Positions 7,661 through 29,036 of a stretch of 32,000 nucleotides of DNA are shown one piece after another. Within the stretch, counting starts at the first letter, position 1; the number at the start of each line of letters is the position of its first letter. Source of the DNA: Flavobacteriaceae bacterium (GTDB taxonomy: Bacteria; Bacteroidota; Bacteroidia; Flavobacteriales; Flavobacteriaceae); the NCBI GenBank assembly GCA_965224465.1, contig OZ245049.1:360001-392000 (forward strand), given 5' to 3'. Under the pieces are notes generated by a model. That model saw only the letters and a program-made list of their open reading frames with translations. It was not told the DNA's origin and did no database searches. The position numbers and the translations under genes are program-made.

Positions 7661-8011
7661 TTAAAGGGTCAAAATGTAAAAAAAAATGAATTCATGCCTG
7701 TTTGCACCAGAGAAGGTCTGTTTATTTTTACTTCATTTTTAAAAAAAATTGTATACCTAAAAATATGTATGTATCTTTAACCGTAAAACATACATTTAAA
7801 AATAAAACGTGCTTTTTCATCTTAAACATATAACACCTTTCTCCGTAACTTATAGTACCACAGCACGGTACCTATACATTAAACATGATGTTATATTTCT
7901 TAGAATTAATGAGCACAGAACCAAATCATGGAATTATTATGATTTAAAATATACACCTACAAACACGATTGCACGTTCAATCGCACATTTTAATTTACAA
8001 GGAGAAGAAGT

Positions 8012-8158
8012 GAACAATGTGACTGTTATAAATAGGTTGTTTTACATGCTGGCGTTGTTAAAAAACAGAATGATAGCTGGGCTATCCATCCATTTACCAC
8101 CTAGCTAAAACAAAGAATAATTTCATTTCTAAACTGTCACTTGGAAATGTATTTGGTA
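8012..8158. mobile_element. MITE copy (left end degenerate)
   Basis: ATAAATAGGTTGTTTTACATGCTGGCGTTGTTAAAAAACAGAA ... CTGTCACTTGGAAATGTATTTGGTA. This explains the 3' half of the spurious ORF 7809-8108. Confidence 0.6.
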
Positions 8159-8207
8159 TACGCCCACACCAAAAAAACACTTGAAATTTGTATCTAAAAC
8201 CAATCCT

Positions 8208-9800: not shown

Positions 9801-9815
9801 ACCAATATCCTAAAA

Positions 9816-12104: not shown

Positions 12105-12116
12105 AAAACAACATCA

Positions 12117-13661: not shown

Positions 13662-13770
13662 CCGATATAAATAGGTTATTTTATGTGCTGGCGTTGTTAT
13701 AAATTCTAAGGATAGCTATGGGTATCCTTAGAATTTTTGCCTAATTAGAACAAAAAATAATTCCATTTTT
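13640..13770. mobile_element. MITE copy, right end truncated by the next copy
   Basis: The left TIR CACCAACTACAGTCCAAAATAACCGATATAAATAGG overlaps the sulfatase 3' end. An internal 12-bp hairpin is ATTCTAAGGATA...TATCCTTAGAAT. Confidence 0.65.
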
Positions 13771-13852
13771 AATTACAATCCAAAATGACAGCTATAAATA
13801 GGTTGTTTTATGTGCTGGCGTTGTTGAAAAAACAGAACGATTGTAAGCTAGG
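13771..13852. mobile_element. MITE left-half fragment
   Basis: AATTACAATCCAAAATGACAGCTATAAATAGGTTGTTTTATGTGCTGGCGTTGTTGAAAAAACAGAAC, after which homology is lost. Confidence 0.6.
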
Positions 13853-14140: not shown

Positions 14141-14206
14141 AAGTCAACAGGATGTTCATGCTGGGCGTGGCGCACCGGATTGATGAACATTTAGTTATTG
14201 TGTGTA
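14141..14206 (-). other. attC-like imperfect palindrome (terminal site of the candidate cassette array)
   Basis: The plus strand reads GTCAAC-AGG-ATGTTCAT-G-CTGG-GCG-TGG-CGC-A-CCGG-ATTG-ATGAACAT-TTA-GTTATTGTGTGTA. It has 8-bp perfect inner arms, a small GC apical stem and a one-sided ATTG bulge. AAC/GTT boxes sit 3 nt outside the arms. The site overlaps the stop codon at 14191. Confidence 0.55.
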
Positions 14207-14922
14207 GCCTTTTCTGTTTTTACTCCACTAAATCCAGTTGCACAACCATAGAAATAAGAACTATAATTGAGTTTAAAACCTTCTTTTCTAAATATTTCCA
14301 TTGCTTTTTCTGCATTTTTGAATTTATCAGTATATTCCCAAAGCATTTTATATTCAATAGGGTTCCCTAAAAATACTTTCCCCAAAATTGGTATAATATT
14401 CTTTAAATAAAATCGGTAAAAAAACTTCAAAATCTTATATTTTGGTTCTGAAACTTCTATGAATGAAATTTCTCCATTTGATTTTAAAATTCTGTTAGTC
14501 TCATTTGCTAATATTTTTAATTGACTTTCATTAAATGTCTTTAGTCCAAAAGCACAAGTAACAAAATCATTATGATTTGATTGTAATTCATTATTCAAAA
14601 CATCTTGATTTAGAATAATTGCTTTACCGTTAAACGTATCATTATTTTTCGTTTCAGCATATTTTAACATTCCATCAGAAAAATCAAGTGCAGATATTTT
14701 TGCTTTTGGAAACCTTTTTTTTGTTGCTTTCCAAGTTTCTCCCATTCCTGTGAGTAAATCAATTATTTCAACTTCCTTTCCTGTTTTATTAAATGATTTT
14801 AAAAAAGTTTTTCTCCAACGTATTGAAAAGCCAAATGATGTTATATAATTCATTCTTTCATATGAACTACTCATACGGTTAAAAATCTTTTTCACATATT
14901 CTGGGCTGTAAATATTATTCAT
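14191..14922 (-). CDS. class I SAM-dependent methyltransferase (UbiE/COQ5-like)
   Basis: 243 aa. The N-terminal YERMNYITSFGFSIRWRK resembles the UbiE/MenG signature, and the SAM loop is DLLTGMGE. Confidence 0.78.
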   Translation of the reverse strand: MNNIYSPEYVKKIFNRMSSSYERMNYITSFGFSIRWRKTFLKSFNKTGKEVEIIDLLTGMGETWKATKKRFPKAKISALDFSDGMLKYAETKNNDTFNGKAIILNQDVLNNELQSNHNDFVTCAFGLKTFNESQLKILANETNRILKSNGEISFIEVSEPKYKILKFFYRFYLKNIIPILGKVFLGNPIEYKMLWEYTDKFKNAEKAMEIFRKEGFKLNYSSYFYGCATGFSGVKTEKATHNN

Positions 14923-15391
14923 TCAGTATAGTTTTCCATTTTTCAGTTTCAGCAAAATCTTTTATAGTCTCATTCCTAACGATTAATAATTTTTTCATAT
15001 ATTTTGTTAAAATTATATAATTAAAAAGTTTTCCGATAATTCCAAAAGGTGATTGAAATTCAAAAATATCTTTCATTATTACAATGTTGTTTTTAACTTC
15101 AAAATAGTGGTCGTGTTTTATTAGTTTAAAAATTCCTTTAGTTTGTTCATCTTTAAAATGAAAAGGTCTTTTGTATTGAGTGATTTTTGATGTTAGTTTT
15201 TGAGTAATTCCAAAATGAGTGGCTTTCCAAGTTACGAATTCATCTAATCCGATTAGTCTTGATATTTTTCCGTCAATTGCTTTTTCATTCGATTTGGCGA
15301 TTGAAATTTTGTGTAGATCAATACTTCTTGAAAGGTCAAAACATATTTCTATTTTAGAATTTATTTTGGTTTCAAGTTCGATTTCTGGCAT
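14915..15391 (-). CDS. SRPBCC (START/Bet v1-like) family protein
   Basis: 158 aa, with the length and pattern of Polyketide_cyc2-like ligand-binding proteins. It overlaps the downstream methyltransferase by 8 nt. Confidence 0.55.
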   Translation of the reverse strand: MPEIELETKINSKIEICFDLSRSIDLHKISIAKSNEKAIDGKISRLIGLDEFVTWKATHFGITQKLTSKITQYKRPFHFKDEQTKGIFKLIKHDHYFEVKNNIVIMKDIFEFQSPFGIIGKLFNYIILTKYMKKLLIVRNETIKDFAETEKWKTILNE

Positions 15392-15409
15392 TTAGCATTC
15401 AGTTTTTGG

Positions 15410-15497
15410 TTTACACACAACGCTTTAGCTAAGTGCAGTACGGTATTTAAAAAGGGAAATGACCTTCGATAAAGCACGAGCAAAGCTATTGTTTGTT
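15410..15497 (-). other. attC-like imperfect palindrome
   Basis: TTTACACACAAC-GCTTTAGC-TAAGTGC...GCACGA-GCAAAGC-TATTGTTTG. Both arms carry CAAC/CAAT, GCTTT, GCT and GTGC in mirror order. It is GC-enriched relative to its flanks and starts 19 nt upstream of the ATG at 15391. Confidence 0.5.
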
Positions 15498-15516
15498 TTT
15501 TTATTTTTCAATCTTT

Positions 15517-15544
15517 GAAAACCAAATCAATAGATTTGGTTTTC
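15517..15544 (-). terminator. strong hairpin GAAAACCAAATC-AATA-GATTTGGTTTTC
   Basis: 12-bp perfect stem, 162 nt downstream of the stop (15706) of the IS66-disrupted gene. Confidence 0.4.
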
Positions 15545-15705
15545 TGTAAATATAAAAGAACCTTTGGAAATAAACAAGGAACCGTATTGACGTTTAGGTT
15601 GGGCACTGCGTCCGTTTCGTTTAACAGCTCATAATTGCTCTGTTTCCGATTCCGCAAAGTTTCTCCTTTGTTTTGATGTAAAAACTATTACGTTTCTATT
15701 TGAAC

Positions 15706-15957
15706 TTATTTATTCCACAATTTAAAAACACCAGATAAAGCAGTAAAAAAGCCTACGGATGGAAGTATTACTTGTGTTAAATTGATTTTTCCTGTACTGA
15801 TACCCATTGAAAGATATATCAAACCGATTATAAAAACAATTATTCCAATTATTAGAATTTTCTTACCCGTATCCCTTTCCTTACCTATATAGTTTTTATA
15901 TTCATTTTCTGTTAATCCATAAAGTCTTTTTAATTCTTTTTTAATAGCGTTTTCATC
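15706..15957 (-). pseudogene. C-terminal half of a small membrane-protein gene split by IS66
   Basis: In frame with 18478-18701 once the IS and one TSD copy are removed. It encodes ...NAIKKELKRLYGLTENEYKNYIGKERDTGKKILIIGIIVFIIGLIYLSMGISTGKINLTQVILPSVGFFTALSGVFKLWNK with stop TAA at 15708-15706. Confidence 0.8.
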
Positions 15958-16015
15958 GTATCCGTCCGACCATCCCCATATTTTTTAGCAGAAAAATAGC
16001 TCCTATTTTTGACGC

Positions 16016-16324
16016 ATGAGAAAAAACGAAGAAAAACGAGCCTATATGACAGCTGTTGTTTCCGATTGGAAGTTGAGTGATTTAACCTTGGAAGATTATT
16101 GTAAAAGTCATAAAATTACACTTTGTAAATTTAGGTACTGGAATAAGAAATTGACCTCCAAAAATGCCAGTGGATTTTCAAAGGTTGAACTTATTGATGC
16201 TCCTATTGAAAACAGCAGAAATTCTATTTTAGATAGTTTTAAAATCGAGTATCCAACAGGTGTAAATTTGGTCATTAACAAAGAGATTACACTTATCGAT
16301 TTACAAAATTTAATTCATTTGTAA
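16016..16324 (+). CDS. tnpA: IS66 accessory protein TnpA (orf1)
   Basis: 102 aa, first gene of the IS66 trio. The stop abuts the tnpB start (16324/16326). Confidence 0.8.
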   Translation: MRKNEEKRAYMTAVVSDWKLSDLTLEDYCKSHKITLCKFRYWNKKLTSKNASGFSKVELIDAPIENSRNSILDSFKIEYPTGVNLVINKEITLIDLQNLIHL

Positions 16325-16325
16325 T

Positions 16326-16667
16326 ATGCTAAATATTTCAAGTGAACTTGATTTTCATCTGTACCTAGAACCCACAGATATGCGTAAAGGATTTAATGGT
16401 TTGTCAGGTGTTATCCGTAATAATTTAGAAGAGGATCCTAGTAATGGAGCTGTTTTTATCTTCATAAATAAACCTCGAAACAAAATAAAACTATTGCATT
16501 GGCAAGCAGGTGGATTTGTACTGTATTATAAACGATTGGAACGAGGTACTTTTGAACTTCCGGTGTATGATAATCTGAAAGGAAGTATACAAATGAAATA
16601 CAGCCAAATGGTGATGCTTCTTGATGGACTGTCTATAAAAAACATCCAACAAAGGAAACGTTATTAA
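16326..16667 (+). CDS. tnpB: IS66 Orf2 / TnpB
   Basis: 113 aa. EPTDMRKGFNGLSGVI...KLLHWQAGGFVLYYKRLERGTF is the conserved IS66 Orf2 signature. Confidence 0.92.
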   Translation: MLNISSELDFHLYLEPTDMRKGFNGLSGVIRNNLEEDPSNGAVFIFINKPRNKIKLLHWQAGGFVLYYKRLERGTFELPVYDNLKGSIQMKYSQMVMLLDGLSIKNIQQRKRY

Positions 16668-16735
16668 TGTCTTTTTACAGGTAAAAAACCTAATAAAACC
16701 AGGCTGTTCATGTATATTTTTCGTATATTTAATGT

Positions 16736-18421
16736 ATGGAAAAAGACTTAGAACAGCTATCAAAAAAAGCACTTATAGCCCTATTACAGGAGGCTAATTC
16801 TAAGTCAGATTTACTTATCAAAAAGACAAATTCTCTTAGCTCAAAGAATGAGTTACTTAATACAAAGACAAGTTCTCTTAGCGCAAAGAATGAGTTACTT
16901 ACTATAAAGACAAAAGACGTTACTTTACAAAAGGCTATCCTAGAAGCTCAATATAAAGAATTAGAGACAAAATACGGATATGGACAATTTCAATTAGAGC
17001 AATTACGTCGTATGATTTTTGGGACAAAACGTGAGCGTTTTATAATGGCTAATAACCCTTTTCAAATGCAACTCCCTTTCGAAGTTTTAAAAGAGATGCC
17101 CCAGGAAGAAGAAGCTCCTGTAAACATTACATATCAACGTAAAAAGGCTAAAAAAAGAACGATTGGAAGTTTAAATCTCCCCAGTCATTTACCTGTTGAA
17201 ATTATTAATTTAGAGCCTAAAGAGACTATAGAGAACCGAATAAAAATAGGTGAAGAAATTACAGATAAATTAGAACTTGTACCCACAAAGCTATACATAA
17301 AACGATATGTCAGACCAAAATACGCCTTAAAAAAGAAAGTACAAGACACATTGATTGACAATGGAAACCCTTTAGGTATTAAGACCGTTATTATGGCTGA
17401 TTTACCAAGTTTTGCTATTGAAAAATCTGTAGCATCAAACAGCCTGCTAGCACAGCTATTGATTGATAAATTCTTAGATCACTTACCGTATTATCGACAG
17501 ATAGAACGTTTTAAACGAGAAGGAATCTCTATAAGTTCATCTACAATAAATGGATGGCAAAACAGCTTAGGACACTTACTTAAGCCGCTGTATCAGGCTA
17601 TGAAAAACACGGTGCTGTCACAAGGATATGTACAGGCCGATGAATCAACTATTCCGGTGCTAGACAAACAGAAAAAAGGAAAAACTCATACTGGATATCA
17701 TTGGGTGTACTATTCACCCATACAAAAAATGGTATTGTTTGATTATCGTCACTCTAGATCTAAACATGGACCTAGAGAAATGCTTAAAAACTTTAAAGGG
17801 TATTTACAAACAGATGGCTACGCTGTATATGATGAATTTGCACTTAAAAAAGATGTCACTTTAGTAGGGTGTATGGCACATGCACGTCGTTATTTTGAGA
17901 AAGCACTAGACTATGACAAAGTAAAAGCGAGTCATGCGATGGTACTCATTCAACAATTATATGCCATTGAACGACATTGTAAAAACCAGGAATTTACTCC
18001 TGAGCAACGGCATGCTTATCGCCTAGATAAAGCACAACCAATAATGGATACATTTATAAAATGGTTGATCCATAATACCCAAGGAAGCTTACCTAAAAGT
18101 TCCTTAGGAAAAGCAATCACTTATACATTAAAACGATGGGACTACTTAAAAGCCTACCTGTATGACGGTACTTTAGAACTAGATAATAACCTGGTAGAAG
18201 GATCTATCAGAACATTAGCTATTGGACGTAAAAATTATTTATTTGCAGGTAGCCATGATGCTGCAAAAAATGCTGCCATGTTCTACTCCTTTTTTGGGAC
18301 TTGTAAAAAACACCAAGTAAACCCCTATAAATGGATGAAAAAAGTACTGGATATAATCCCTGATTACAATGCTCGAAAGCTAAATGAGCTATTTCCACAA
18401 AATTTAAACCTCGATCAATAA
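16736..18421 (+). CDS. tnpC: IS66 family DDE transposase TnpC
   Basis: 561 aa. It has an N-terminal coiled coil, LPYYRQ, ADESTIPVLD and GCMAHARRYF, and a C-terminal NNLVEGSIR..GRKNYLFAGS. Confidence 0.93.
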   Translation: MEKDLEQLSKKALIALLQEANSKSDLLIKKTNSLSSKNELLNTKTSSLSAKNELLTIKTKDVTLQKAILEAQYKELETKYGYGQFQLEQLRRMIFGTKRERFIMANNPFQMQLPFEVLKEMPQEEEAPVNITYQRKKAKKRTIGSLNLPSHLPVEIINLEPKETIENRIKIGEEITDKLELVPTKLYIKRYVRPKYALKKKVQDTLIDNGNPLGIKTVIMADLPSFAIEKSVASNSLLAQLLIDKFLDHLPYYRQIERFKREGISISSSTINGWQNSLGHLLKPLYQAMKNTVLSQGYVQADESTIPVLDKQKKGKTHTGYHWVYYSPIQKMVLFDYRHSRSKHGPREMLKNFKGYLQTDGYAVYDEFALKKDVTLVGCMAHARRYFEKALDYDKVKASHAMVLIQQLYAIERHCKNQEFTPEQRHAYRLDKAQPIMDTFIKWLIHNTQGSLPKSSLGKAITYTLKRWDYLKAYLYDGTLELDNNLVEGSIRTLAIGRKNYLFAGSHDAAKNAAMFYSFFGTCKKHQVNPYKWMKKVLDIIPDYNARKLNELFPQNLNLDQ

Positions 18422-18477
18422 AATCGAGGATTTTTTATGTATTTTTAATTCCTATACGTACTTCGTCGGACGGATAC

Positions 18478-18701
18478 TTTTCATCAAGCATTTTATCTTT
18501 TAGCTGTAATATCATTTTTTCAATCTTCTTATGGGATATAGTATTGGATTCTATCTCTTTTTTTTCTTCTTCTACAATTTTATTTAGGTTTATACCTTGG
18601 CTCATTAAGTCATATTGAATACTTTCGATAGATTCTCCCATCTTAAGTCGTTCAATCACTATGGAATTAATTTCCTCGCGTTGATTTTTTTGTTCTTCCA
18701 T
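18478..18701 (-). pseudogene. N-terminal half of the gene split by IS66
   Basis: Codons 1-74 (MEEQKNQREE...KDKMLDE). The track ORF 18435-18701 reads through into the IS end for 14 codons. Confidence 0.8.
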
Positions 18702-18736
18702 ATTTTAAATACTTAAATTTTTCAATTGCAATTTTT

Positions 18737-18813
18737 GTACACAAATTAAGTTTCAATTTGGTTTTGTTTCTTCAAAGTGTTTTTTCACTCAGACTTTTTT
18801 ATCTTAGTTGTGC
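18737..18813 (-). other. weaker attC-like palindrome
   Basis: GTACACAAATTAAG ... CTTAGTTGTGCCC are mirror outer boxes, with an inner AGTG-TTTTTT-CACT hairpin. The left box has AAT rather than AAC. Confidence 0.3.
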
Positions 18814-18885
18814 CCAAAGTTTTGTGTATGGTTTGTTGTGTGTTTAAATGTACAAATTTTCAGTTAAGTACAAATTTCATAAAAA

Positions 18886-19556
18886 TCACTTATCTTTGGT
18901 TTAGCAAGAAGTAGCAATAAACTATACACTTTGCTACACTAAACACCTACGGTGTAGCTTTCGTTGCGAACCATTAACTTCTGTGTTATTAATTTAAAAT
19001 TTAAATAACATGAAAAACACAGAAGAAAACAGCCGTATTGCAACAGAAGTAAAGGTAGTAAAAATAGAAGTAGCAAACTTGGTTCGTATTTATGAAAATA
19101 GGTTGATAGTTGCTAGTAAATCAGATCAAACTATTCGGAATTATGTGCGTGGGCTCGTAAAACTATATGAATTTCACGATAAAGACCCCAAGGAATTGAA
19201 TTGGCGTAGCATCAAGCTGTATGTTGCAGAATTGCGATACTACTATCAGGAAATACTAGAAAATGTATCTTTAGCACAGAAAATTCCCTATTCCAAAGAA
19301 AAACCAATTTCACCCTTAACTATTAGGCGGGAGGAGTTAAATTGTTGTTTGAAAGCTGTATTAATTATAAGTACAAGGTGATATTTCGCTTGTTGTATTC
19401 CTGTGGTATTCGAAGATCTGAACTAGTGCATTTAAAGATACATGATATTGAAACAAAGGATGGGAAAATGTGGATTAGAATTAACAAAGGGAAAGGGTCA
19501 AAAGACCGGTATGTTTATATTAACCCAAAAGTATACCACTATTTTAATCGCTAGGT
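18886..19556 (+). mobile_element. 5' portion of a tyrosine-recombinase/IS91-type composite element (truncated)
   Basis: A ~125-bp leader is shared with 25211-25344, including the hairpin CTACAC..GTGTAG and the 10-bp IR CTTCTGTGTT/AACACAGAAG around the ATG. The degraded recombinase gene follows. Confidence 0.6.
19010..19554 (+). pseudogene. tyrosine recombinase (phage-integrase family), frameshifted and 3'-truncated
   Basis: Two overlapping ORFs (19010-19381 and 19342-19554) together read SDQTIRNYVRGL...YVAELRYYYQEILEN...INYKYKVIFRLLYSCGIRRSELVHLKIHDIETKDGKMWIRINKGKGSKDRY. The catalytic C-terminal half (H-x-x-R, Y) is missing. Confidence 0.75.
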
Positions 19557-19571
19557 GTTTGTGTGCCGTTT
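19557..19571 (-). other. R''-like half-site (GTTTGTGTGCC) abutting the stop at 19572, cut off by the recombinase element
   Basis: Its 9 nt TTGTGTGCC (19559-19567) are the exact complement of GGCACACAA (20359-20367) at the other end of the same ORF block. Confidence 0.45.
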
Positions 19572-20339
19572 TTAATTTGGCCCATCAATTATTGGTTCAG
19601 GATTTAAATTAAATTTATTAGTTTTTTTATCATAAGTAACTATCATGTATCCACCCACTCGTCCAATATTATTCCAAATAATTATTTTTCTTGTTTTTGT
19701 ATTTACTACTTCTACATTGTCGTATATGATAGTCTTGACATTTCCTGTTTGACTTTCAATTTCAGAAAAGTCAATTGTTTGAAAAATTTTATTGTCTCTC
19801 TTCTGAATTATTTTTAAGGAATTCATTTGTGCTCTTCTGTCTTCTTCTAATTTTGAATAGTTCCCTACAAAATAAAAGTCAGATAAGGAATTTGTTTGTA
19901 GAATTTCTATGTTTGAATATTCATTTTTGTCTGTTGTGTCTATTAGTTGAGAAACAAAATCTAAGTGTAAGATTAATCTCTTATTTGTAGATAAATTTTT
20001 CCAGATTCCTGATATTTTACTTTTCGAAAAGTCAAACTCAAAAATTGCAGAATATTTGTTGTTAGAGATTTCATATAACAATGCTTTATTATTTTTAAAA
20101 TTAATTTTCCCCTCAAGTCTAATTGGAGTATTGTATTTATCATATTTGTAAACTCCAATAACATTAAAATCTCTTTTTTCCTGTTCTCCAAAATATCCTT
20201 GTCTAACTTGAATAGATAGAGTAATTGGATATTTATCTATTGTTCCTTTGAAATTATAACATTCATACCAACCCGCGTAAATTTTTGTAAAGCTAAAGCA
20301 GATAAAAAAAAGTAAAATTACGGATGTTTTCTTTGTCAT
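19572..20339 (-). CDS. hypothetical secreted protein
   Basis: 255 aa with an N-terminal signal peptide (MTKKTSVILLFFICFSFTKIYA). I recognise no domain. Confidence 0.7.
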   Translation of the reverse strand: MTKKTSVILLFFICFSFTKIYAGWYECYNFKGTIDKYPITLSIQVRQGYFGEQEKRDFNVIGVYKYDKYNTPIRLEGKINFKNNKALLYEISNNKYSAIFEFDFSKSKISGIWKNLSTNKRLILHLDFVSQLIDTTDKNEYSNIEILQTNSLSDFYFVGNYSKLEEDRRAQMNSLKIIQKRDNKIFQTIDFSEIESQTGNVKTIIYDNVEVVNTKTRKIIIWNNIGRVGGYMIVTYDKKTNKFNLNPEPIIDGPN

Positions 20340-20358
20340 AATGATTGCTGTTTTTTAT

Positions 20359-20440
20359 GGCACACAACGCTTGCGCTATGCCAAGTGGGCTTGTGTTGCG
20401 CCTGCGGCAAGCACATTTGGTATAACGACTGTTGTGCATA
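20359..20440 (-). other. attC-like imperfect palindrome (best example)
   Basis: GGCACACAAC-GCTTG-CGCTATGCCAAGTGGGCTTG-TGTTGCGCCTGCGG-CAAGCACATTTGGTATAACG-ACT-GTTGTGCATA. Outer boxes are CACAAC/GTTGTG. The ~19-bp inner arms have mismatches and bulges. GC content is well above the AT-rich surroundings, and the site fills the gap between two minus-strand ORF blocks. Confidence 0.6.
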
Positions 20441-20453
20441 GTTGTTTTTAAAA

Positions 20454-20570
20454 TGGTGTGAAGCAGGGGACTCGAACCCCTTTAACCCTCAGTCCTAATA
20501 AAGTTTAATTTTCGTCAGTTACTAATATTCCAAAGCAAAGGCTCCATTCTTCACACGAGGGTCGCTTCAC
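20454..20570 (-). ncRNA. tRNA-like element (canonical T-arm + acceptor 3' strand + CCA; no cloverleaf)
   Basis: The minus strand reads ...AGGGG-TTCGAGT-CCCCT-GCTTCAC-A-CCA (20481-20454). The complementary 5' strand GTGAAGC is at 20570-20564. A second closing helix is CCCTC (20561-20557) / GAGGG (20490-20486). The 66-nt AT-rich interior cannot form D or anticodon arms. Confidence 0.35.
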
Positions 20571-20714
20571 GAATAATCATTTTCAATTTTTCCATAATTA
20601 CAGATTTTATCAGTTCTACAAACACTATTGCTAATGCGAAGAATAGAAATTGACTTAGGTCAAATAGATAACTGGTTACTAATTCTACTTTGTTACATAG
20701 GCTCTTAAATATCT

Positions 20715-21548
20715 TTAGAACGGTAAATCTTCCCAATCTACCGTTTCTGTTTCTTCTTTTTTATTTTCTTGTTCTATTGTCTTTTCAATGGTTTCAATAA
20801 ATTTTATCGAGTTAGTAACATTATTAAATATTAAAACACTTTCAGAGTAATTCAAAATTTGATTGTCGTGAGCAAAACTTCTATTGTTTCTAATGTCATT
20901 AAATGCTTCTATGACGTGGATAGAATATTTTAAAATTCTTTCAGTCATTTGAGATTCGATTTTCTCATTTGCCACAATGAACTTTACATATTTACCAAAT
21001 ATTGCATTTAGTGATTCTGCTTTTTTAATTTCAATCTTATGACTTTCACATAATTGACGGATAAATTTCATTACATATGTATGCAATCTATCTAAAGCAA
21101 CTTCAGGTTCATTTTTATCTATACTTTCTCGGATAGATTTGGCAAGTAAACTAAAGTCTCTATCATCAGAAACTTCCTTAATTACACCAATTTCTTCAAT
21201 AATTGTATCCTCTAATAATTTTCCTGCTATTTTTTGACACTCGTCAAATAGATTTTGCTCTGGTTGAGTTATTTCTCCATAAGACATAAGTTTTTTGTCC
21301 TTCCAATAATCGAGCATTTCAGAGGTTAATTTCCCTACTGTATAGTTTTTTTCTTTATGCCAAATTGCTCTTAGTCTGTTGGCTTTAGAATCTCCAAAAT
21401 CAGAGTAATTATCTGAATAGAATTCTAAATTCAATGTTTCAAAGACAAAATTACTTAAAGTCCTATTTGAAAAATCAAGTACATAACCGCCTTCCATTTC
21501 AAAGAACTTTTCTAATTTCAATTTTTCACTTCTATTTAGGTCTGCCAT
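20715..21548 (-). CDS. AbiJ-like abortive-infection protein with C-terminal HEPN (Abi_C) domain
   Basis: I prefer ATG 21548 (MADLNRSEK...) to the track start at 21575, which lies inside the attC-like box. The N-terminal GYVLDFSNRTLSNFV...GDSKANRLRAIW resembles AbiJ N-terminal domains. The C-terminal IRNNRSFAHDN fits the HEPN Rx4-6H motif. Confidence 0.72.
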   Translation of the reverse strand: MADLNRSEKLKLEKFFEMEGGYVLDFSNRTLSNFVFETLNLEFYSDNYSDFGDSKANRLRAIWHKEKNYTVGKLTSEMLDYWKDKKLMSYGEITQPEQNLFDECQKIAGKLLEDTIIEEIGVIKEVSDDRDFSLLAKSIRESIDKNEPEVALDRLHTYVMKFIRQLCESHKIEIKKAESLNAIFGKYVKFIVANEKIESQMTERILKYSIHVIEAFNDIRNNRSFAHDNQILNYSESVLIFNNVTNSIKFIETIEKTIEQENKKEETETVDWEDLPF

Positions 21549-21563
21549 TCGGTTTTTCTCAAT

Positions 21564-21650
21564 TACGCACAACACCCGTATATCATCAATAAACTTCCAA
21601 AACTTGACGTTATTTCCGTTATCTCTATAATAGTTTCGGGTTGTGTGTTG
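21564..21650 (-). other. attC-like site (outer boxes good, interior poorly paired)
   Basis: TACGCACAACACCCG ... CGGGTTGTGTG is an 11-bp inverted repeat with 2 mismatches, separated by ~60 AT-rich nt. Confidence 0.35.
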
Positions 21651-21767
21651 TTTTTTTGTTAAAAGTATTCAAATTTTTTAAATTTTCAAGCGGTCCAACG
21701 ATTTTTTTATTGTTTATTTCGATGGTCTTGGTGTATATCTCTGTGGTTTTTGGAGAAGCAGGCTTAA

Positions 21768-21926
21768 CACCAATTACAATCCAAAATGACAGATATAAAT
21801 AGTTTATTTTACGTTCTAGTGTTGTTGAAAAATAGAACTATAACTAAGGCTATCCTTAGATTTTTCGCCTAGCTAAAACAAAAAATAATTTCATTTCTAA
21901 ACTGTCACTTGGAAATATATTTGGTG
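21768..21926. mobile_element. MITE copy (full length, reference copy)
   Basis: The TIRs are CACCAATTACAATCCAAAATGACAG / CTGTCACTTGGAAATATATTTGGTG, and there is an internal hairpin CTAAGG-CTAT-CCTTAG. Confidence 0.75.
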
Positions 21927-22180
21927 TAAGAGGACTTTTTAGATTCAATAAGAAGTTGCTTTATAACCTATTGTTTATGTGTGTAAAAGAGACGCTGTTT
22001 GAGTTTTCGTTGGACAAACGACAAAAGATGGAAGCCAAGCCCGGTTTGATAACCATTCTCCATACATGGAATCAAAAAATGCAGTATCACCCACATATTC
22101 ATTGTATTATTCCCAGCGGAGGTATCAACGAAAAAGGGGAATGGAAAACGTGTAAGGGGCCCGTAATTATGTTGGTTTAG
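21927..22180 (+). pseudogene. IS91-family (Y2 HUH) transposase internal fragment
   Basis: ...LITILHTWNQKMQYHPHIHCIIPSGGINEKGEWK matches the conserved HTW..L..HPH.HC..P.GG core. It starts exactly at the MITE end and loses homology after ~75 codons. Confidence 0.7.
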
Positions 22181-22374
22181 TTCTATGAATGCCAACATAT
22201 TTACAGGAGCCATAGTGTTTCTTATAGACTACGTTTTTGGTCTAACATAATTAAAACAAGCATATTAAAAGATGTATTTTTCCTTTTTAAGTCCATTTGA
22301 TTTTTTACAGAGTTGTAGTGTATTTCCGAACGGTATTCTAAAATATGGTTTTTTTACCCCTTGCTATTTTTGCC

Positions 22375-23499
22375 TTATTTTGATTTGTAAAAAGCTTCTA
22401 AAGTCGTTAAAAAAGAAGCTCCTAAAGCTTCTGAACGCTCTGCTGACCATCCTTTTGTTGCATCAGGAAGGTTGTTATTATCTTTAAAAGGCATTTCTAA
22501 AGTAAAAGAAAGTGTTTTGAAAAGTTCTCCAATCTGTTTAGAACAAATCGCTAAGTTTGCCTTTTGTGGAAGGTTATCTTCATATTTATATACATCTTGA
22601 AATTCAGGAGTTACCGATATCCACTTATTTTTAAACCGAGTTTCTTCGGCTAAAATTTCAGGAGTAATACTTGGAATCCCTTGTAAGCTGGTTACAAAAT
22701 TATAAGGTATCGCCTCGTCACCATGTACATCTAATAAAAAATCTAAACCTGTTTCTTGCATTTTTTGTTTGCAATAAAAAACCTCTGGTTCGGTAGCCTT
22801 GTCAGGATTTTCCCAAACTCGGTTGTAATTTATCCCCAAAGTGTTTACCCGTATGTTCCCCGAAATACTTCCATCAATATTCATGTTCGGAATCAAGTAA
22901 AAACAACAGGTTTCTAATAAGCTATCCATCGTAGTATCTTTTGATATGAAACGATCTACAATTCCTTTCATAAACCATTCTGCCATACTTTCCCCTGGAT
23001 GCTGACGTGCAATTATCCAGATGTTTTTTTTATCCTCGCTCGGTTTTCCAAATTGTAAAAGTTCAATCGGTTTGTTATTTATGGTTTGCCCTAAAACAGT
23101 GGTTGTACATAATTTACTTTGACTCGATTTTTCTATTAAATCAAGATGTTGCTGATAGGTAAAAGGCGTGAAATAAGCAAAACTCACTTGTGTTTGCGTA
23201 GGTGTGATACTGAAATAAAGTTTGCCATTTTTATATTCGGTATTTTGTAAACGAAACCAATTTTTAGCGTCATAAGAAGCATTGGTATTGTAATTTTCCC
23301 AACCATCAGCAAAGGCACTTTCACTTGTGTTATTAATACAGAAATTATAGGTTTCTCCTATAATAGCATTCGTCATTTTAAAATTAAACCATTGAAAATA
23401 ATGAGAATTCGTGTCTTTACGGATGTTTAATTGTATCGTGTTTTCTTGCTGTGATACTACAATAATATTACCAGCATCTATATTTGTTGTTATTTGCAT
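22375..23499 (-). CDS. M14-family zinc carboxypeptidase (cytosolic-carboxypeptidase-like, with N-terminal beta-sandwich domain)
   Basis: 374 aa. Zn-binding is IARQHPGE (HxxE) with a later DVHGDE. There is no signal peptide. Confidence 0.8.
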   Translation of the reverse strand: MQITTNIDAGNIIVVSQQENTIQLNIRKDTNSHYFQWFNFKMTNAIIGETYNFCINNTSESAFADGWENYNTNASYDAKNWFRLQNTEYKNGKLYFSITPTQTQVSFAYFTPFTYQQHLDLIEKSSQSKLCTTTVLGQTINNKPIELLQFGKPSEDKKNIWIIARQHPGESMAEWFMKGIVDRFISKDTTMDSLLETCCFYLIPNMNIDGSISGNIRVNTLGINYNRVWENPDKATEPEVFYCKQKMQETGLDFLLDVHGDEAIPYNFVTSLQGIPSITPEILAEETRFKNKWISVTPEFQDVYKYEDNLPQKANLAICSKQIGELFKTLSFTLEMPFKDNNNLPDATKGWSAERSEALGASFLTTLEAFYKSK

Positions 23500-23621
23500 A
23501 AAGTTTTATTAGTTTAATTTTTATTTTTTTATAGATAAAATGAAACCACGTTTACATTCAGGAAGGTAAAACCCTAACAATTTATTGTGGTTATTGCATA
23601 CGGAAACGTTTAAGCGTAAGC

Positions 23622-25001
23622 TCAAAACTGGTCTGATATCATCCAATTATCTAAAGCAATTTTTTTATTTTTGGACTGCAGCCAGATTTTACTTTTTGTC
23701 AAATCCTCTATATTTACTTTAATATCAAAATACACCTCTTCTTTTGGTGTTTCTATAAAAGTAGTATATTGGTTAAATAATAACTTCTTATCAAACATAA
23801 TAGCTACCCAACGTCTTTCGTCTTTGTTATTTAATATTTTAATTCTAATTAAAACCGGTAGTGGTTTTGTAATGATTTCTTTTAAAAAATCAGCACTTCT
23901 ACTATATTGATTCAAATAAAAATCTATGATCTTAATATCTTTAAGTTCGTTAATTTCATTTGGTTTTTGGTTAATTGCAATTCCAAAAGGATATAGGCTT
24001 CTAAAACTTAAGATTTCTTCAGGACTTAATTTAGTAACCGTTCCTTTTTCAAGAATTTTAAAATCCCGATTTAAATTTTCAATACTAGTACTATCTAGTG
24101 GCGCAATTTGAGAATGGGTTTTAAAAATAGAATCCAGAGTTTGCCCTTCTACAGTATTGAAAGCTACATCAAAATAAGGGGTTAAGTGCGTATAATCAGT
24201 ATATTCTTTCTTTAATAAGTCTACATGTCCATTGGGTAATATATGAATAAGCATATCACTAATAATGAGTTGTTTTTCATAATTTTCAGCTACTTTTAAT
24301 TTCTTCTGGTCAATGGGAAAGAGGTCTTTATAAAACTTATTTTCTAAAACGGAATACCATGACAGTTCAAAAGTATCAAAACCAATAGGAATTAACGTGT
24401 CTGTGGAATTCGTATAATACCGCTGACTATACATATATTCGTACGGTTCGGTGAAACCTTCTATTTCAGAAACTTTTCTATAATTTTCGTGAAACCTAGC
24501 GCAAAAAGAAGCCGTTTTTTTTCTTTTAGAATCTATAAATTTTATACAGTCTATTAGTATCGGAAAATCTTTGTCATGTGCTATTATAATATTACTACTA
24601 TAATGTTTTCTTTGTGTTTGATATAAGTAATAAGCGCTACTAATAGATAAATACATCGGATAGCCTAACAATATAATCCCCCATATTAATAATTTAATTT
24701 TATAGCCTTCTACACTATGAGCAACTTGGCTAAAGCTAAAAGAGCCGTAAGCTATAAAGGCATAAAAAGCAGTAATAGTGAGAAACTTCAGAATCATATC
24801 CGTATTTAGACGTATAGCAATATTGCTATTGGAAAAGGACTTCCCTAGCGCATTTGCGTAAACAAACAAATAACAAGTAATAAGCGTTAGAATTATAGCG
24901 GAAGTGGTTACTCCTATTGTACCACCAAAATAAGCAGCAGGAAAAAGAAACAACAAACCAATGCCAATCATAATTAGTAACGTAGCAAGGAAATCAGACA
25001 T
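23622..25001 (-). CDS. hypothetical multi-pass membrane protein with large soluble C-terminal domain
   Basis: 459 aa. About 4 hydrophobic helices lie in the first 125 aa, followed by ~330 aa with no motif I recognise. Confidence 0.7.
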   Translation of the reverse strand: MSDFLATLLIMIGIGLLFLFPAAYFGGTIGVTTSAIILTLITCYLFVYANALGKSFSNSNIAIRLNTDMILKFLTITAFYAFIAYGSFSFSQVAHSVEGYKIKLLIWGIILLGYPMYLSISSAYYLYQTQRKHYSSNIIIAHDKDFPILIDCIKFIDSKRKKTASFCARFHENYRKVSEIEGFTEPYEYMYSQRYYTNSTDTLIPIGFDTFELSWYSVLENKFYKDLFPIDQKKLKVAENYEKQLIISDMLIHILPNGHVDLLKKEYTDYTHLTPYFDVAFNTVEGQTLDSIFKTHSQIAPLDSTSIENLNRDFKILEKGTVTKLSPEEILSFRSLYPFGIAINQKPNEINELKDIKIIDFYLNQYSRSADFLKEIITKPLPVLIRIKILNNKDERRWVAIMFDKKLLFNQYTTFIETPKEEVYFDIKVNIEDLTKSKIWLQSKNKKIALDNWMISDQF

Positions 25002-25210
25002 AATGGGAAGATTGATTTTTTTCGGATATATTTTAGCGCCTTTAACATATTTACTTAATGGTAGCCAATGGTCTGTATATGAAACGTAGCATATAAAAAT
25101 ACGATAAATTTTAGGTTTATCACAGCACCAAATTTAACAATTTTCGTTTTAATTTTTCACATTTAAATTGATGAATTGTAAATTTTGTAGAATTGTTAAT
25201 AGATACAGAC

Positions 25211-25344
25211 TTTTGGGTTTAGAACTTAGCCTTTATTATTTATATTGTTGCACTAAACACCTCTGGTGTAGCTTACGTTGCGACCCCTTAACTTCTGTGT
25301 TATTCATTAAAAATTTAATAGCATGAAAAACACAGAAGAAAACA
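25211..25344 (+). repeat. second copy of the recombinase-element leader plus first ~8 codons
   Basis: Aligns with 18886-19032 at roughly 80% identity by eye. Homology ends at ...CACAGAAGAAAACA, directly next to the attC-like site. Confidence 0.7.
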
Positions 25345-25394
25345 TCTGGATGTTCATGCTGGGCGCTACGGACCGGATGAACACTTAGTTATTA
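25345..25394 (-). other. attC-like palindrome, homologue of 14141-14206
   Basis: TCTGG-ATGTTCAT-G-CTGG-GCGCTACGG-A-CCGG-ATGAACAC-TTA-GTTATTA. It overlaps the stop codon at 25392, and its distal box is replaced by the recombinase-element fragment. Confidence 0.5.
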
Positions 25395-25751
25395 TATGGC
25401 ATTTTCAATCCATTCAATTGCCTTTGTAAGTGACTCCTCTTGTTCGCATTTTACATCTGGTATTATGGAACCTTTAATTATATTTTTATCCGAGTCACAT
25501 ATAAATGTGTCACTAAAAAATAATACTGTTCCATCTGAATTGATTCCAATTATTTTAAGTCCAGTTGTCATTCCCTGAGATTCCGAACCAAATATTTTAG
25601 TGTTTCCTTGAGATTTTAAAACTATTGTAACAAATTCTCCCAGACTTGCTGTCTTAGAGTTTATCAAGACAGCTGTTTTTTTATTTTTATTTTTCAATGT
25701 ACTATCAAAATCAATGCTTTGAATCGAACCTGAATTTCCTTTAAAATAATG
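25392..25751 (-). pseudogene. C-terminal fragment of a gene interrupted by IS30 (weak S41 peptidase-like C-terminus)
   Basis: The frame stays open from the IS30 junction (HYFKGNSGSIQSIDFDSTLKNKNKKTAVLINSKTASLGEF...). VLINxxTASxGE resembles the Ser-containing strand of S41 peptidases, but other S41 motifs are absent. Confidence 0.4.
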
Positions 25752-26875
25752 CTGAATTCAAGTCACAAACGCAACTTTTAGTTAAATAATAATTGTTCCA
25801 TTACAAATATAGGGTTTTGATATTTATGTCTCTTCCTAGGTCTGTTATTTAATTTTGTTTCTACCTCTTTGATTCTTTGATCTGTTAGGTTTGTAAAGTC
25901 ACTTCCTTTGGCAAAATATTGTCTAATCAAACCATTTAAATTTTCGTTAGATCCTCTTTCCCAAGAGTGATATGGATGCGCAAAAAAGTAATCAATACAT
26001 AAATTTTCTGCAACCTGCTCATGGCCTGCAAATTCTTTTCCATTATCAGCTGTTATAGTATGTAGATAAGGCTTCCAGTCTTCTAATATTTCATTGATAG
26101 CTTTAGTGACAACAACTGCTTCTTTAGAGCTTACTTTTTTCATTTTAAGCATTCCAGAAGCTCTATCATTTACGGTAAGTATGGCTTGATTATGGTTTTT
26201 ACCTATGATTAAATCGACCTCTAAATCTCCAAATCGATTTCTTTGTTCAACAACTTCAGGGCGTTGTTCTATACTAATACGATTCTTTATAACCCCTCTA
26301 GAATCCTTTGATGAGCCACGTTTTCTATATCTCCTTCCCTGTCTGCGAAGGTGTGTATGTAAATCACCATCATTCCTCTTGTCTTCCCTAATATGCTGAT
26401 ATATACGCTCAATAGACACCGTTTCTTTACCTTGTTTTTTTAGGACACCAACTACTTGCTCAGGACTATAATCGTCTCGCAATAACAACTCTATTGCTTG
26501 TTGAATATCTTCTGTAAAGCGTTTTCTTTTAGGCTTTTCTTTATGACGTTTAGCATACTTTTTTTGGGCTAATTCATGCTTGTAAACTCCATTTCTTTTG
26601 TCTGAATTACGCTTAATCTCTTTGCTAATAACAGACTTGTCTTTTCCTATAGCAGCTGCTATCTCAACCTGTTTATAACCTTGTTTTAACATGCAACAAA
26701 TTGTGTATCTTTGCGCTTGGGTGATGTGTTTCATACAACTTCTTTTTTCGAGATTTGAGACCGTAAGATACATATCCATCAAGACAAGAAAGGTAGGTTT
26801 TCCTACTTTTCTGTTTTGAAAATATAACCATCATAGAATCAAATCGAAAAGTTGCGTTTATTAGTTGAATTTAAG
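25752..26875 (-). mobile_element. IS30-family insertion sequence (~1.12 kb)
   Basis: Imperfect ~28-bp terminal IRs CTGAATTCAAGTCACAAACGCAACTTTT (25752-) / AAAAGTTGCGTTTATTAGTTGAATTTAAG (-26875), with a single transposase ORF. Confidence 0.85.
25778..26734 (-). CDS. IS30 family transposase
   Basis: I prefer the start at MKHITQAQRY (26734). The N-terminal HTH is QGYKQVEIAAAIGKDKSVISKEIKRN, and the DDE core is DLIIG...TADNGKEF...SWERGSNEN. Confidence 0.92.
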   Translation of the reverse strand: MKHITQAQRYTICCMLKQGYKQVEIAAAIGKDKSVISKEIKRNSDKRNGVYKHELAQKKYAKRHKEKPKRKRFTEDIQQAIELLLRDDYSPEQVVGVLKKQGKETVSIERIYQHIREDKRNDGDLHTHLRRQGRRYRKRGSSKDSRGVIKNRISIEQRPEVVEQRNRFGDLEVDLIIGKNHNQAILTVNDRASGMLKMKKVSSKEAVVVTKAINEILEDWKPYLHTITADNGKEFAGHEQVAENLCIDYFFAHPYHSWERGSNENLNGLIRQYFAKGSDFTNLTDQRIKEVETKLNNRPRKRHKYQNPIFVMEQLLFN

Positions 26876-27039
26876 AAGTTATTATTAATGCTTGTCCAAT
26901 TTAACTCATCTTTTTTGATGGAATTATAATGTATTGACTTAAAAATTTTATCAAAGAATATTTCTTCTTTAGTCTTTTCTTTTTTAGCACAAGAATATAG
27001 TAACACCACAAGGATTAAGAATAATATTGGGGTTTTCAT
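26876..27039 (-). pseudogene. N-terminal fragment (lipoprotein signal) of the gene interrupted by IS30
   Basis: MKTPILFLILVVLLYSCAKKEK...DELNWTSINNN. The track ORF then reads into the IS30 end. Confidence 0.45.
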
Positions 27040-27082
27040 ATTTATTTTATTGTAATGATATAAAACGCATGTTGGCAAATCG

Positions 27083-27622
27083 TTATATATTCACTTGCTC
27101 TTTTATTCTTCCAATTAGGTATTCAAAATCGGATTTCAAATGCGTTCGATTTTTCTCGATTAGAGTCAGTAATTCAATTTTCGAATTGTCTTCTAATAAA
27201 ATGAACAATTTACCATTAAAGGTGTCTTTGTAATTATTTATTTCGTAGGTCAAATCTTGAATATCTTGTGTTTCGTATTTTTTCGACTCATTTTTAGATA
27301 ATAACTCTATTGAATTTGGAGAAAATACTTTTTTATACTTGCTGTTCTTTGATAATTTATAAGCATTCCCTATCATTACAAAACCACTTCCACCGAGAAG
27401 TAAAACAATAATTTTAAGTACCTGACTCATAGGTATATCCAATCTATTAATCAAACCAGCAAAGAAAAAAGATAACAGAATAATAAGTGCCCCAACTATA
27501 TACTTAATCATTACTTTTTTAGTTTTTCCAATTGTTAGCGTTTGAGAATTCTCGTCATAATCGAAAATTAAATGATGTCTTTTAAATTTTAAACCTAACG
27601 TGTACAATACTTTTTTATCCAT
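27083..27622 (-). CDS. hypothetical membrane protein (two central TM helices)
   Basis: 179 aa. It is bracketed by 11-nt inverted boxes TGTTGGCAAAT (27070-27080) and GTTTGCCAACA (27636-27646). Confidence 0.65.
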   Translation of the reverse strand: MDKKVLYTLGLKFKRHHLIFDYDENSQTLTIGKTKKVMIKYIVGALIILLSFFFAGLINRLDIPMSQVLKIIVLLLGGSGFVMIGNAYKLSKNSKYKKVFSPNSIELLSKNESKKYETQDIQDLTYEINNYKDTFNGKLFILLEDNSKIELLTLIEKNRTHLKSDFEYLIGRIKEQVNI

Positions 27623-27635
27623 ATTTATATTTAAT

Positions 27636-27686
27636 GTTTGCCAACACTCATATAACCATAATAAGAACTAAAACATAATGGTATAT
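27636..27686 (-). other. partial attC-like site (R'-like box + one pair of arms)
   Basis: GTTTGCCAACA-CTC-ATATAACCATAAT-12 nt-ATAATGGTATAT. I found no convincing distal box. Confidence 0.3.
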
Positions 27687-28142: not shown

Positions 28143-28229
28143 ATAATCGTTGCTGGCTAATAAATCAAACCATACGAAACTATGTGCGTGGACTAGTCAA
28201 ATTGTATGAGTTTCACAACAAAGCCCCAA
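28143..28229 (+). pseudogene. fragment of the same tyrosine recombinase gene as 19010-19554
   Basis: ATCGTTGCTGGCTAATAAATCAAACCATACGAAACTATGTGCGTGGACTAGTCAAATTGTATGAGTTTCACAACAAAGCCCC aligns with 19105-19190. Confidence 0.6.
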
Positions 28230-28235
28230 TGGGAG

Positions 28236-28890: not shown

Positions 28891-28979
28891 ATTTTGTCAG
28901 TATCCCATTTTTAAGACCAAAATCTACAGAGGGGTCAACATCACCGGAATGAGGGGTCAACATCATCGGAATATCTACC

Positions 28980-29036
28980 TAGCTAGAACAAAAAATAATT
29001 CTATTTCTAAACCGTCACTTGAAAATGTATTTGGTA
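28980..29036. mobile_element. MITE right-half fragment
   Basis: TAGCTAGAACAAAAAATAATTCTATTTCTAAACCGTCACTTGAAAATGTATTTGGTA, truncated on the left by the IS21 remnant. Confidence 0.6.

Follow-up and report, generated by a model that had tools for sequence, protein, structure and literature searches.

Palindromic sites between co-oriented gene modules of a Flavobacteriaceae bacterium: cassette-like features and no support for a canonical integron

Gene modules and palindromic sites

We analyzed a 32,000-nt stretch of DNA from a Flavobacteriaceae bacterium (assembly GCA_965224465.1, contig OZ245049.1, positions 360,001 to 392,000 of the forward strand), hereafter called the window, in which imperfect palindromes of 50-90 nt lie at the ends of gene modules encoded on the minus strand. 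Positions 1-13661 hold ordinary genes, including RecG, RsmB, two GH20 hexosaminidases, and a sulfatase. A first-pass annotation had described the DNA beyond 14.1 kb as an integron-like cassette array. Its observation that all open reading frames (ORFs) outside insertion sequences (IS) are on the minus strand was confirmed from 14191 to the window end, a region that is dense in IS. Its description of the ORFs as short and often of unknown function holds in part. Six of the 11 units match no Pfam or NCBIfam family and one unit has a gene with an abortive-infection domain, both of which fit an accessory gene content; however, ORFs of 374 and 459 aa also occur between 14.1 kb and the window end, and the SRPBCC ORF (14915-15391) shares 65-75% identity with more than 2000 Bacteroidota proteins. 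Three modules were delimited as follows:

14191-15391, minus strand: SRPBCC (14915-15391) and UbiE-family methyltransferase (14191-14922) module, with TTGTGTGTA at its 5' end and TACACACAA at its 3' end
19572-20339, minus strand: ORF255 module, without family match, bounded by GTTGTGTGCC and GGCACACAAAC
20385-21593, minus strand: Abi_C-domain gene module, comprising the gene (20715-21548) and 275 nt holding a tRNA-like element

Seven palindromes had been proposed for the region. The five main ones (A to E) were recovered and are genuine, not products of chance; 18737-18813 qualifies as a weak member, and no palindrome was found at 27636-27686. Together with a single box at the ORF255 stop codon, the sites are as follows:

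14141-14206, minus strand: A, type-1 palindrome, overlapping the TAA stop codon of the UbiE-like gene
25345-25394, minus strand: E, type-1 palindrome, 83% identical to A, overlapping the stop codon of the S41-peptidase gene
15410-15497, minus strand: B, type-2 palindrome, with the box CACACAAC 24 nt 5' of the SRPBCC start
20359-20440, minus strand: C, type-2 palindrome, a nearly full-length hairpin with a GC content of 0.54; box 23 nt 5' of the ORF255 start
21564-21650, minus strand: D, type-2 palindrome in which the outer stem of about 11 bp alone pairs; box 19 nt 5' of the Abi_C gene start
18737-18822, minus strand: F, weak type-2 site (ACACAAATTAAG...CTTAGTTGTGCC) 5' of an 88-aa ORF; its right side abuts the left end of an IS91-like element
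19560-19577, minus strand: box X, GGCACACAAAC at the ORF255 stop, whose cognate is the gene-proximal box of C

Read in gene orientation, A consists of the box TACACACAAT, AACTAA, a hairpin (ATGTTCAT...ATGAACAT) with the one-sided CAAT/ATTG bulge already noted in the annotation, and CCTGTTGAC. A and E have the exact 18-mer GGATGTTCATGCTGGGCG in common, for which the chance expectation is 0. At its distal end, E runs directly into the initial 24 nt of a recombinase gene associated with IS91, and box X is what remains of a site truncated by the right end of an IS91-like element (...TAATCGCTAGGT followed directly by GTT). Exact CACAAC...GTTGTG pairs spaced 30-160 nt apart were found twice, at C and D, against 0.11 expected from shuffled sequence; in related genomes (1.44 Mb) such pairs occur at 0.24 per 32 kb, and all of them are unstructured and lie in coding sequence. 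The CACAAC/GTTGTG termini attributed to the sites are exact in C and D; the distal box of B is degenerate, with ATTGTTTG in place of GTTGTG. AAC/GTT is retained in A, C, and D, where the boxes read ACACAAC/GTTGTGY, one transition away from RYYYAAC/GTTRRRY; B has AAT/ATT. The reported GC enrichment stands out clearly in A, C, and E (0.46-0.54; background 0.31), is modest in B and D (0.37), and is absent at 18737-18813 and 27636-27686 (0.28). The folding energies of single sites as DNA are not exceptional (z-scores of -0.3 to -2.6).

The position of the sites relative to genes agrees with the annotation in two respects. The stop codons at 14191, 19572, and 25392 are all TAA and fall inside or at sites, and the next ATG follows the CACAAC box after 24, 23, or 19 nt. 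The claim that the sites occupy the gaps between ORF blocks was found to be too general: none is present at the junctions 22375-23499/23622-25001 and 29116-29733/29774-30256, or among the tandem genes beyond 32 kb.

The tRNA-like element of the Abi_C module (20456-20556, minus strand, about 100 nt) separates the Abi_C-domain gene from site C. Its acceptor-like stem of 8 bp (GUGUGAAG/CUUCACAC) is followed by ACCA, and its T-arm (GGGGUUCGAGUCCCC) is perfect. Neither ARAGORN nor Rfam calls it as a tRNA; it could represent a degraded tRNA, what is left of an att site, or a small RNA associated with the Abi gene.

Sequence families and further copies

Four contigs were examined in addition to the window. 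L001, from ENA sample ERZ25073217, encodes the window proteins identically and reaches 3.4 kb past the right edge of the window. L095 (16 kb), L099, and L100 (the latter two 20 kb together) come from the metagenome sample of L001; for L095, the identity of the lineage is assumed. Altogether 11 copies or remnants of the sites were found, seven in the window and four on L095. Type-1 copies are 83-90% identical and D/H copies 72-96%, with loops conserved as well as stems. The type-1 copy on L095 is located at the stop codon of an ApbA gene, and its loop is split by IS21. Two other L095 copies, H and H2, are homologous to the interior of D (72% average identity over about 110 nt, including the loop) and lie upstream of unrelated genes. 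Since the protein encoded downstream of H is unrelated to that of the Abi_C-domain gene, paralogy was rejected as the source of the D/H likeness. H and H2 sit in a duplication of at least 250 nt. A GTTGTGCGTAA box was also found on L095, upstream of a cNMP-binding gene.

Neither the core 13.6 kb of the window nor L099/L100 nor about 1.4 Mb of related genomes yielded any copies. Dispersal beside core genes in either orientation, as expected of repetitive extragenic palindromic (REP) elements, was not observed in about 45 kb of same-lineage DNA. In about 50 kb of the lineage, the 11-mer GTTGTG[CT]GTAA is found four times, in each case before a start codon; related genomes contain it once in 2.9 Mb, both strands counted. 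Orientation and spacing relative to start and stop codons are strict in nine of nine copies. An exact scan of GTDB representative genomes with the type-1 core gave no matches; the sole match among JGI metagenomes (L002, 1839-1873) was dismissed as coincidence, as ATGTTCATGCTGGGCG there encodes MFMLG of an M20 amidohydrolase in a GC-rich organism.

The highest-scoring sigma-70-type hexamer pair of the region (TTGACG-16-TATAAT, 11/12) is present inside D on the plus strand (21604-21631), pointing away from the Abi_C-domain gene, and TTGACGTTATTTCCG inside D is kept in H and H2. The regional count of promoter-like sequences is at chance level, and Bacteroidota use promoter motifs other than sigma-70 hexamers.

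Boxes paired across gene units

In gene orientation, the 5' box of a unit matches the reverse complement of that unit's own 3' box more closely than one half of a palindrome matches its other half. The pairs are:

Abi_C-domain gene: 5' box GTTGTGCGTAATTG; reverse complement of 3' box GTTGTGCATAGTTG
ORF255: 5' box GTTGTGTGCC; reverse complement of 3' box GTTTGTGTGCC
SRPBCC-UbiE: 5' box TTGTGTGTA; reverse complement of 3' box TTGTGTGTA
404-aa gene of L095: 5' box AGGTGTTGCCAGTAAT; reverse complement of 3' box AGGTGTTGCCAGTAGT

The limits of the Abi_C module form an imperfect inverted repeat of about 30 nt, composed of two arms, the gene-proximal one of D and the distal one of C. For seven units, cognate 16-nt boxes anchored at AAC/GTT gave a summed score of 40, compared with 23.2 +/- 4.1 for permuted partners; 2 of 5040 permutations reached 40. 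The halves within palindromes (24) were no better than permuted halves (25.4). Because the 16-nt boxes were first picked by eye, the test was repeated without anchoring, by local alignment of the 45 nt that precede each start codon against the complete 3' flank. The score was again higher than for permuted partners (70 vs. 54.7 +/- 4.6, p about 0.002).

It is improbable that the sites are ordinary gene-end terminator hairpins and leaders, with their likeness due to local duplications and the box pairing to a short consensus and chance. The unremarkable folding z-scores of individual sites, the T-run after B, C, and D on the plus strand, the small sample, and the position of H and H2 in a duplication agree with such an origin. 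On the other hand, the motif counts are far above chance and above those in related genomes, unrelated genes flank homologous sites, the permutation tests oppose chance, and a simple terminator/promoter scan called none of the sites an intrinsic terminator.

Comparison with a related organism

L101, a 1.4-kb metagenome contig of a related organism, carries the same SRPBCC-UbiE pair, with SRPBCC 94% identical. Homology with the window extends from CGTTGTGTGTAA, at most 2 nt before GTT, until after GCTACACACAAYAA. Beyond these limits the two sequences show no relationship. The hairpin upstream of the L101 module is different (GGTATATAGTTAC/GTAACTATATACC), and so is the upstream gene over the 20 nt of its 3' end that are visible. 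At its downstream end the L101 module keeps an R''-like box, which is followed by different sequence and no type-1 hairpin; an attC inherited with its gene is not what is seen here. The ends of the L101 module form an inverted repeat matching at 10-11 of 12 positions, and the 3' copy of the 11/12 repeat lies within the UbiE coding end in the window and L101 alike. In relatives at 72-75% identity no boxes were found, and SRPBCC is present there in ordinary contexts.

These observations bear on the main rival explanation, which we regard as somewhat less likely than the one favored below: that the sites are selfish or structural hairpin repeats of the REP or bacterial interspersed mosaic element (BIME) kind, or like miniature inverted-repeat transposable elements (MITEs), inserted at gene ends in an IS-rich region. 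The genes would then be ordinary and immobile, and the hairpins at most mRNA-end stabilisers or terminators, plus IS targets. Multi-copy families with conserved loops are in accord with this explanation, and the hairpin families around the same genes differ between the window and L101 as REPs do between species. It is also consistent with the IS21 within a type-1 loop, the IS91-like elements abutting type-2 boxes, the failure of attC models (see below), and the resemblance of SRPBCC, M14, S41, and UbiE to normal chromosomal genes. However, complementarity of boxes across genes and homology breakpoints at the boxes are predictions of a cassette-type model and not of a plain REP/MITE model, and the latter does not predict an inverted repeat reaching into the UbiE coding end in both genomes. 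The strict orientation and start/stop distances, and the lack of copies in the core half of the window, in L099/L100, and in the relatives, also speak against REP/BIME elements. Target-site duplications were not visible either, as no direct repeat was found around B, C, D, or the SRPBCC-UbiE unit in the window or L101, and no gene for a REP-associated tyrosine transposase (RAYT; Y1_Tnp) was seen in the lineage DNA examined (the window and same-sample contigs). Of relevance to the REP reading, a Y1_Tnp gene of IS200/IS605 or RAYT type lies directly 3' of a 74%-identical SRPBCC gene in L097/L098 (6635-7009), which belong to distant relatives and not to the window lineage.

Tests for an integron

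The reading as an integron, or as a cluster of attC sites lacking an integrase (CALIN), was examined with covariance models. A scan of the window against Rfam (E<=10) returned nothing relevant and no attC family. Because Rfam gave no attC-type match, proxy models, distinct from IntegronFinder's own, were built from IntI1-linked plasmid arrays, in which 13 attCs were curated. Model R1 was made from 11 authentic class-1 attCs and contains the R-box and L-box pairs and the extrahelical position; R2 was made from 20 attCs via the structure-guided alignment of R1. These proxies are reasonable because the diversity of class-1 attCs has been described as being as wide as that of all sequenced genomes (PMC8618304). 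R1 retrieved the held-out attCs of estX (26 bits), arr-3 (22 bits), and gcuF (45 bits); the E-values at which the models recovered held-out attCs were 5e-4 to 6e-9. With filters off, R1 and R2 reached at most 10.4 bits (E>=2.2) in 78 kb of the lineage, a ceiling that holds for the window, L001, L095, L099, L100, and L101, with no match at A-E; the best match in the window and L001 (10.4 bits, E 2.4) lies off these sites. IntegronFinder calls a CALIN from at least two attC sites at E<=1.

In every real attC used, the R box is 7 bp long, the spacers measure 5 and 6 nt, and the L box is made up of three pairs, a bulged base, and five pairs (7-8 of 8 pairs formed). This R-spacer-L geometry with an extrahelical base was found in none of the five sites A-E, even when spacers of 4-6/4-7 nt and 7/8 pairs were accepted. 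A loose rule-based scan proved non-specific (85 matches vs. 96 in shuffled sequence) and was therefore used as a per-site check only. No IntI is encoded in the window or in the 3.4 kb beyond it. One cassette trait is present, in that the 5' end of a unit complements the box at its own 3' end. Judged by these sequence criteria, membership of the locus in a canonical integron or CALIN, in the IntegronFinder sense, is not supported: the attC models, the R-spacer-L geometry, the site-less junctions, and the L101 hairpin all oppose it.

A divergent true integron, with intI/attI more than 3.4 kb past the window and attCs too divergent for models trained on proteobacteria, appears highly improbable. 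Its appeal derives from the co-oriented genes, the stop codons overlapped by sites, the short gap from distal box to start codon, and the AAC/GTT termini. Type-1 sites read ..TAAC-5nt-GTTCA...TGAAC-5nt-GTT.., which is close to aadA-type attCs, and a unit 5' end that complements its own R''-like box is exact cassette behaviour. Integrons have also been reported in Bacteroidota (PMC8618304; PMC9024848), with one complete integron among the complete Bacteroidota genomes by 2022 (PMC9024848); a cassette array in a member of the Flavobacteriaceae would be notable because of this rarity. Against it stand the low scores of models that do find held-out attCs, the reported breadth of class-1 attC diversity (PMC8618304), and the loose R-spacer-L rule with a position-4 bulge, which all real attCs pass and no site passes. 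Further, spacer geometry varies, attCs do not travel with the orthologous module, some junctions are site-less, and the leader is conserved 5-20 nt beyond GTT. No IntI was found in the DNA covered, and the recombinase fragments near the sites are IS91-linked and Xer-like, with full-length relatives of about 300 aa.

IS91-like elements and recombinase genes

Three fragments of tyrosine-recombinase genes were found between 14191 and the window end, and four pieces of IS91-like elements in the window altogether. The elements are:

18822-19562, plus strand: IS91-like element, internally deleted, with a frameshifted tyrosine-recombinase gene (19010-19554)
21956-22180: further decayed piece, an IS91 Y2_Tnp fragment
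25245-25345: further decayed IS91-like piece
28164-28232: further decayed IS91-like piece
L095, about 8228-12562: complete IS91-family copy

The IS91-family element carries its own Xer-like tyrosine recombinase (Phage_int_SAM_4, Phage_integrase, and MrpR_C_cat) upstream of Zn_Tnp_IS91/Y2_Tnp; on L095 the recombinase gene is directly followed by Zn_Tnp_IS91 and Y2_Tnp. Full-length relatives of the fragments are about 300 aa long and mostly come from contigs of about 2.5 kb. The fragments were rejected as IntI, as they score equally for XerC, XerA, and IntI and are part of IS91-like elements. Both readable right ends of IS91-like elements abut the GTTG-type box of a type-2 site at a gene stop (...CGCTAGGT followed directly by GTTG), and GTTG-type sequences are found at or beside both ends in direct, not inverted, orientation. 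IS91 prefers insertion next to GTTC/CTTG, and the GTTG abutment at the right end fits this preference.

A further explanation is that the units are invertible, or like Xer/dif modules, with their own inverted repeats, and can be flipped or swapped by a tyrosine recombinase (compare the invertons and shufflons of Bacteroidota and the pdif modules of Acinetobacter). We hold this to be the least probable of the explanations considered. It would account for unit-specific inverted repeats of 10-30 nt around single gene units and draws on the abundance of Xer-like recombinase genes in the region; the boxes ACGCACAA/TTGTGCGT also loosely resemble dif half-sites. Yet all units have a single orientation, with no alternative in two assemblies, the sites are not of 28 bp with a 6-bp spacer, and all the recombinase genes seen are within IS91-like elements.

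Proposed module boundaries with cassette-like logic

We tentatively favor the reading, based on the sequence comparisons above, that A-E and their relatives are non-canonical module-boundary sites with cassette-like logic, forming the junctions between co-oriented gene modules. Their anatomy, the unit-specific complementarity of the boxes, and the homology breakpoints at the boxes are observed. In gene orientation, a module consists of one or two genes and starts with a G-TTGTG(Y)G... box about 19-35 nt before the start codon. It ends in a complementary box, ...C(R)CACAA-C, at or shortly past the stop codon. The 3' box of a module is separated from the 5' box of its successor by a hairpin that is lineage- and family-specific (type 1, B/C type, or D/H type), and box, hairpin, and box together make up a single imperfect palindrome of 50-90 nt. 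The boxes would be the sites where modules join or exchange. The logic would be like that of integron cassettes or Xer/dif modules, in that the gene-side half of a site would travel with its gene; the acting recombinase would be neither demonstrably IntI nor encoded in the window, and the sites may secondarily serve as IS insertion targets. The first-pass claim that palindromes bound co-oriented gene modules thus gains from the box complementarity and the L101 breakpoints, while the integron identity attached to it is not supported.

The system is considered non-canonical because box-hairpin spacing varies, conservation of the leader continues past GTT, sites are missing, the attC models fail, and the hairpin does not stay with the orthologous module. 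In their species specificity and IS targeting the hairpins are REP-like. Neither an integron nor a REP model fully explains the combination of paired boxes, species-specific hairpins, and breakpoints at the boxes.

Several points weigh against these module-boundary sites as places of exchange. No candidate recombinase was found, and modules in an excised, inverted, or otherwise altered arrangement were not observed. The breakpoints also count for less than they might seem to, because any rearrangement that preserves an operon breaks just outside it. The sample is small (seven units, about 11 sites) and its boxes were initially chosen by eye. The signal of the unanchored test comes mostly from the Abi_C-domain unit, with its 30-nt imperfect inverted repeat, and from the 404-aa unit of L095; the L095 H/J unit, one of the two carrying that test, is in a duplicated region of a contig whose same-lineage origin is assumed. 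Box-hairpin spacing varies (about 2x3, 5x7, and 7x4 nt), which is awkward for a single structure-reading recombinase. SRPBCC, as a widely conserved chromosomal gene, is atypical for a floating cassette, and several junctions lack a site.

A more specific proposal, which we consider rather unlikely as it stands, is that of an undescribed IntI-independent cassette system of marine Flavobacteriaceae. Its units would have unit-specific terminal inverted repeats of 10-30 bp (GTTGTG.../...CACAAC) and be arranged head to tail with lineage-specific hairpins between them, and exchange at the boxes would be carried out by a recombinase or HUH enzyme. Such an enzyme could be related to the tyrosine recombinase or the Y2 transposase of the IS91-like elements that crowd the sites.

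The boundary sites have features in common with several known systems. Like integron attC/CALIN arrays, the locus has co-oriented, mostly promoterless-looking units and palindromes ending in AAC/GTT that overlie the upstream stop and precede the next start by about 20 nt; the palindromes have one-sided bulges, their gene-side half complements the box at the far end of the gene, and they are IS targets. Unlike such arrays, the locus gives no covariance match and lacks the fixed succession of 7-bp R box, spacer of 5/6 nt, and L box with extrahelical base, and no IntI was detected; box complementarity spans 10-30 nt, the conserved leader reaches past GTT, the orthologous module has not inherited the hairpin, and some junctions are site-less. 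Lineage-specific multi-copy hairpins at gene ends, other families at equivalent positions in relatives, and IS hot spots are shared with REP/BIME elements. The strict orientation and phase of the sites with respect to start and stop codons, the clustering with no dispersal so far, the boxes paired across genes with one in a coding end, and the lack of a visible RAYT are not. The pdif (XerC/XerD) modules of Acinetobacter plasmids are also modules in arrays, with inversely oriented site halves and homology ending at the sites. The pdif sites are 28 bp long, with a 6-bp spacer, and alternate in orientation, whereas the boxes described here are chromosomal, 6-70 nt apart with a hairpin, and of one polarity throughout. 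Mobile insertion cassettes and MITE-flanked units likewise have passenger genes within short terminal inverted repeats and no transposase of their own, but they differ from the present modules, in which no target-site duplications were seen, orientation is uniform, and no IS in reach has ends matching the boxes.

The non-integron verdict guards against a false CALIN call. If the modules truly move at the boxes, an abundant marine lineage would have a new means of shuffling genes, and the boxes would be a new kind of recombination site. If they are immobile, the sites would be documented attC-mimicking REP-like repeats and a negative control for attC predictors in AT-rich genomes.

Other features of the region

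According to a protein search, the window belongs to a contig of 5.24 Mb. The nearest public relatives of the sulfatase are encoded in marine Flavobacteriaceae metagenome-assembled genomes (83% and 79% identity). In a synteny comparison with 80 related genomes, none of the relatives has the genes of the proposed array after GH20-GH20-sulfatase, an order kept in the two closest of these genomes; at no more than 83% identity, the relatives are too distant for presence/absence tests of the units. Beyond the right edge, L001 positions 1-3800 (about 32.0-35.4 kb) hold a tandem series of four or more paralogous lipoprotein-like genes, of which two are interrupted, by an IS (DDE_5) and by IS256. The conserved intergenic segments of about 75 nt among these paralogues contain no CACAAC/GTTGTG palindromes. 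Other IS in the window are:

16016-18421, plus strand: IS66-family element, splitting a gene (18435-18701/about 15700-15975)
25778-26782: IS30, interrupting the S41-family peptidase gene
30387-31619: IS256
within 14191 to the window end: IS21 IstB fragment

On the minus-strand gene, GTCGGACGGATAC is present on either side of the IS66-family element (15960-15975 and 18462-18480) and resembles a target duplication. The S41-family peptidase gene consists of the parts 25392-25777 and 26839-27078; the 79-aa ORF at 26839-27078 resembles its lipoprotein-signal N-terminus.

Two further repeats were noted. A MITE-like repeat of about 130 nt (...CAATCCAAAATGAC.GNTATAAATAGGTTNTTTTATGTGCTGGCGTTGTT...CTAGCTAAAACAAAAAATAATTNCATTTCTAAACNGTCACTTGGAAAT...), unrelated to the palindromes, is present in core intergenic regions and among the co-oriented modules (5335-5480, 7555-7660, 8020-8160, 13638-13772, 13771-13831, 21766-21930, and 28975-29035). 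A perfect 20-bp hairpin (TTTTAAAATAGTTCGATTTT...) is found just 3' of every IS256 transposase copy seen (window 30308-30367; L001 5073-5120; L099 5241-5288; L100 660-707 and 4235-4282), and because of this constant association it appears to belong to IS256 and not to the host locus.

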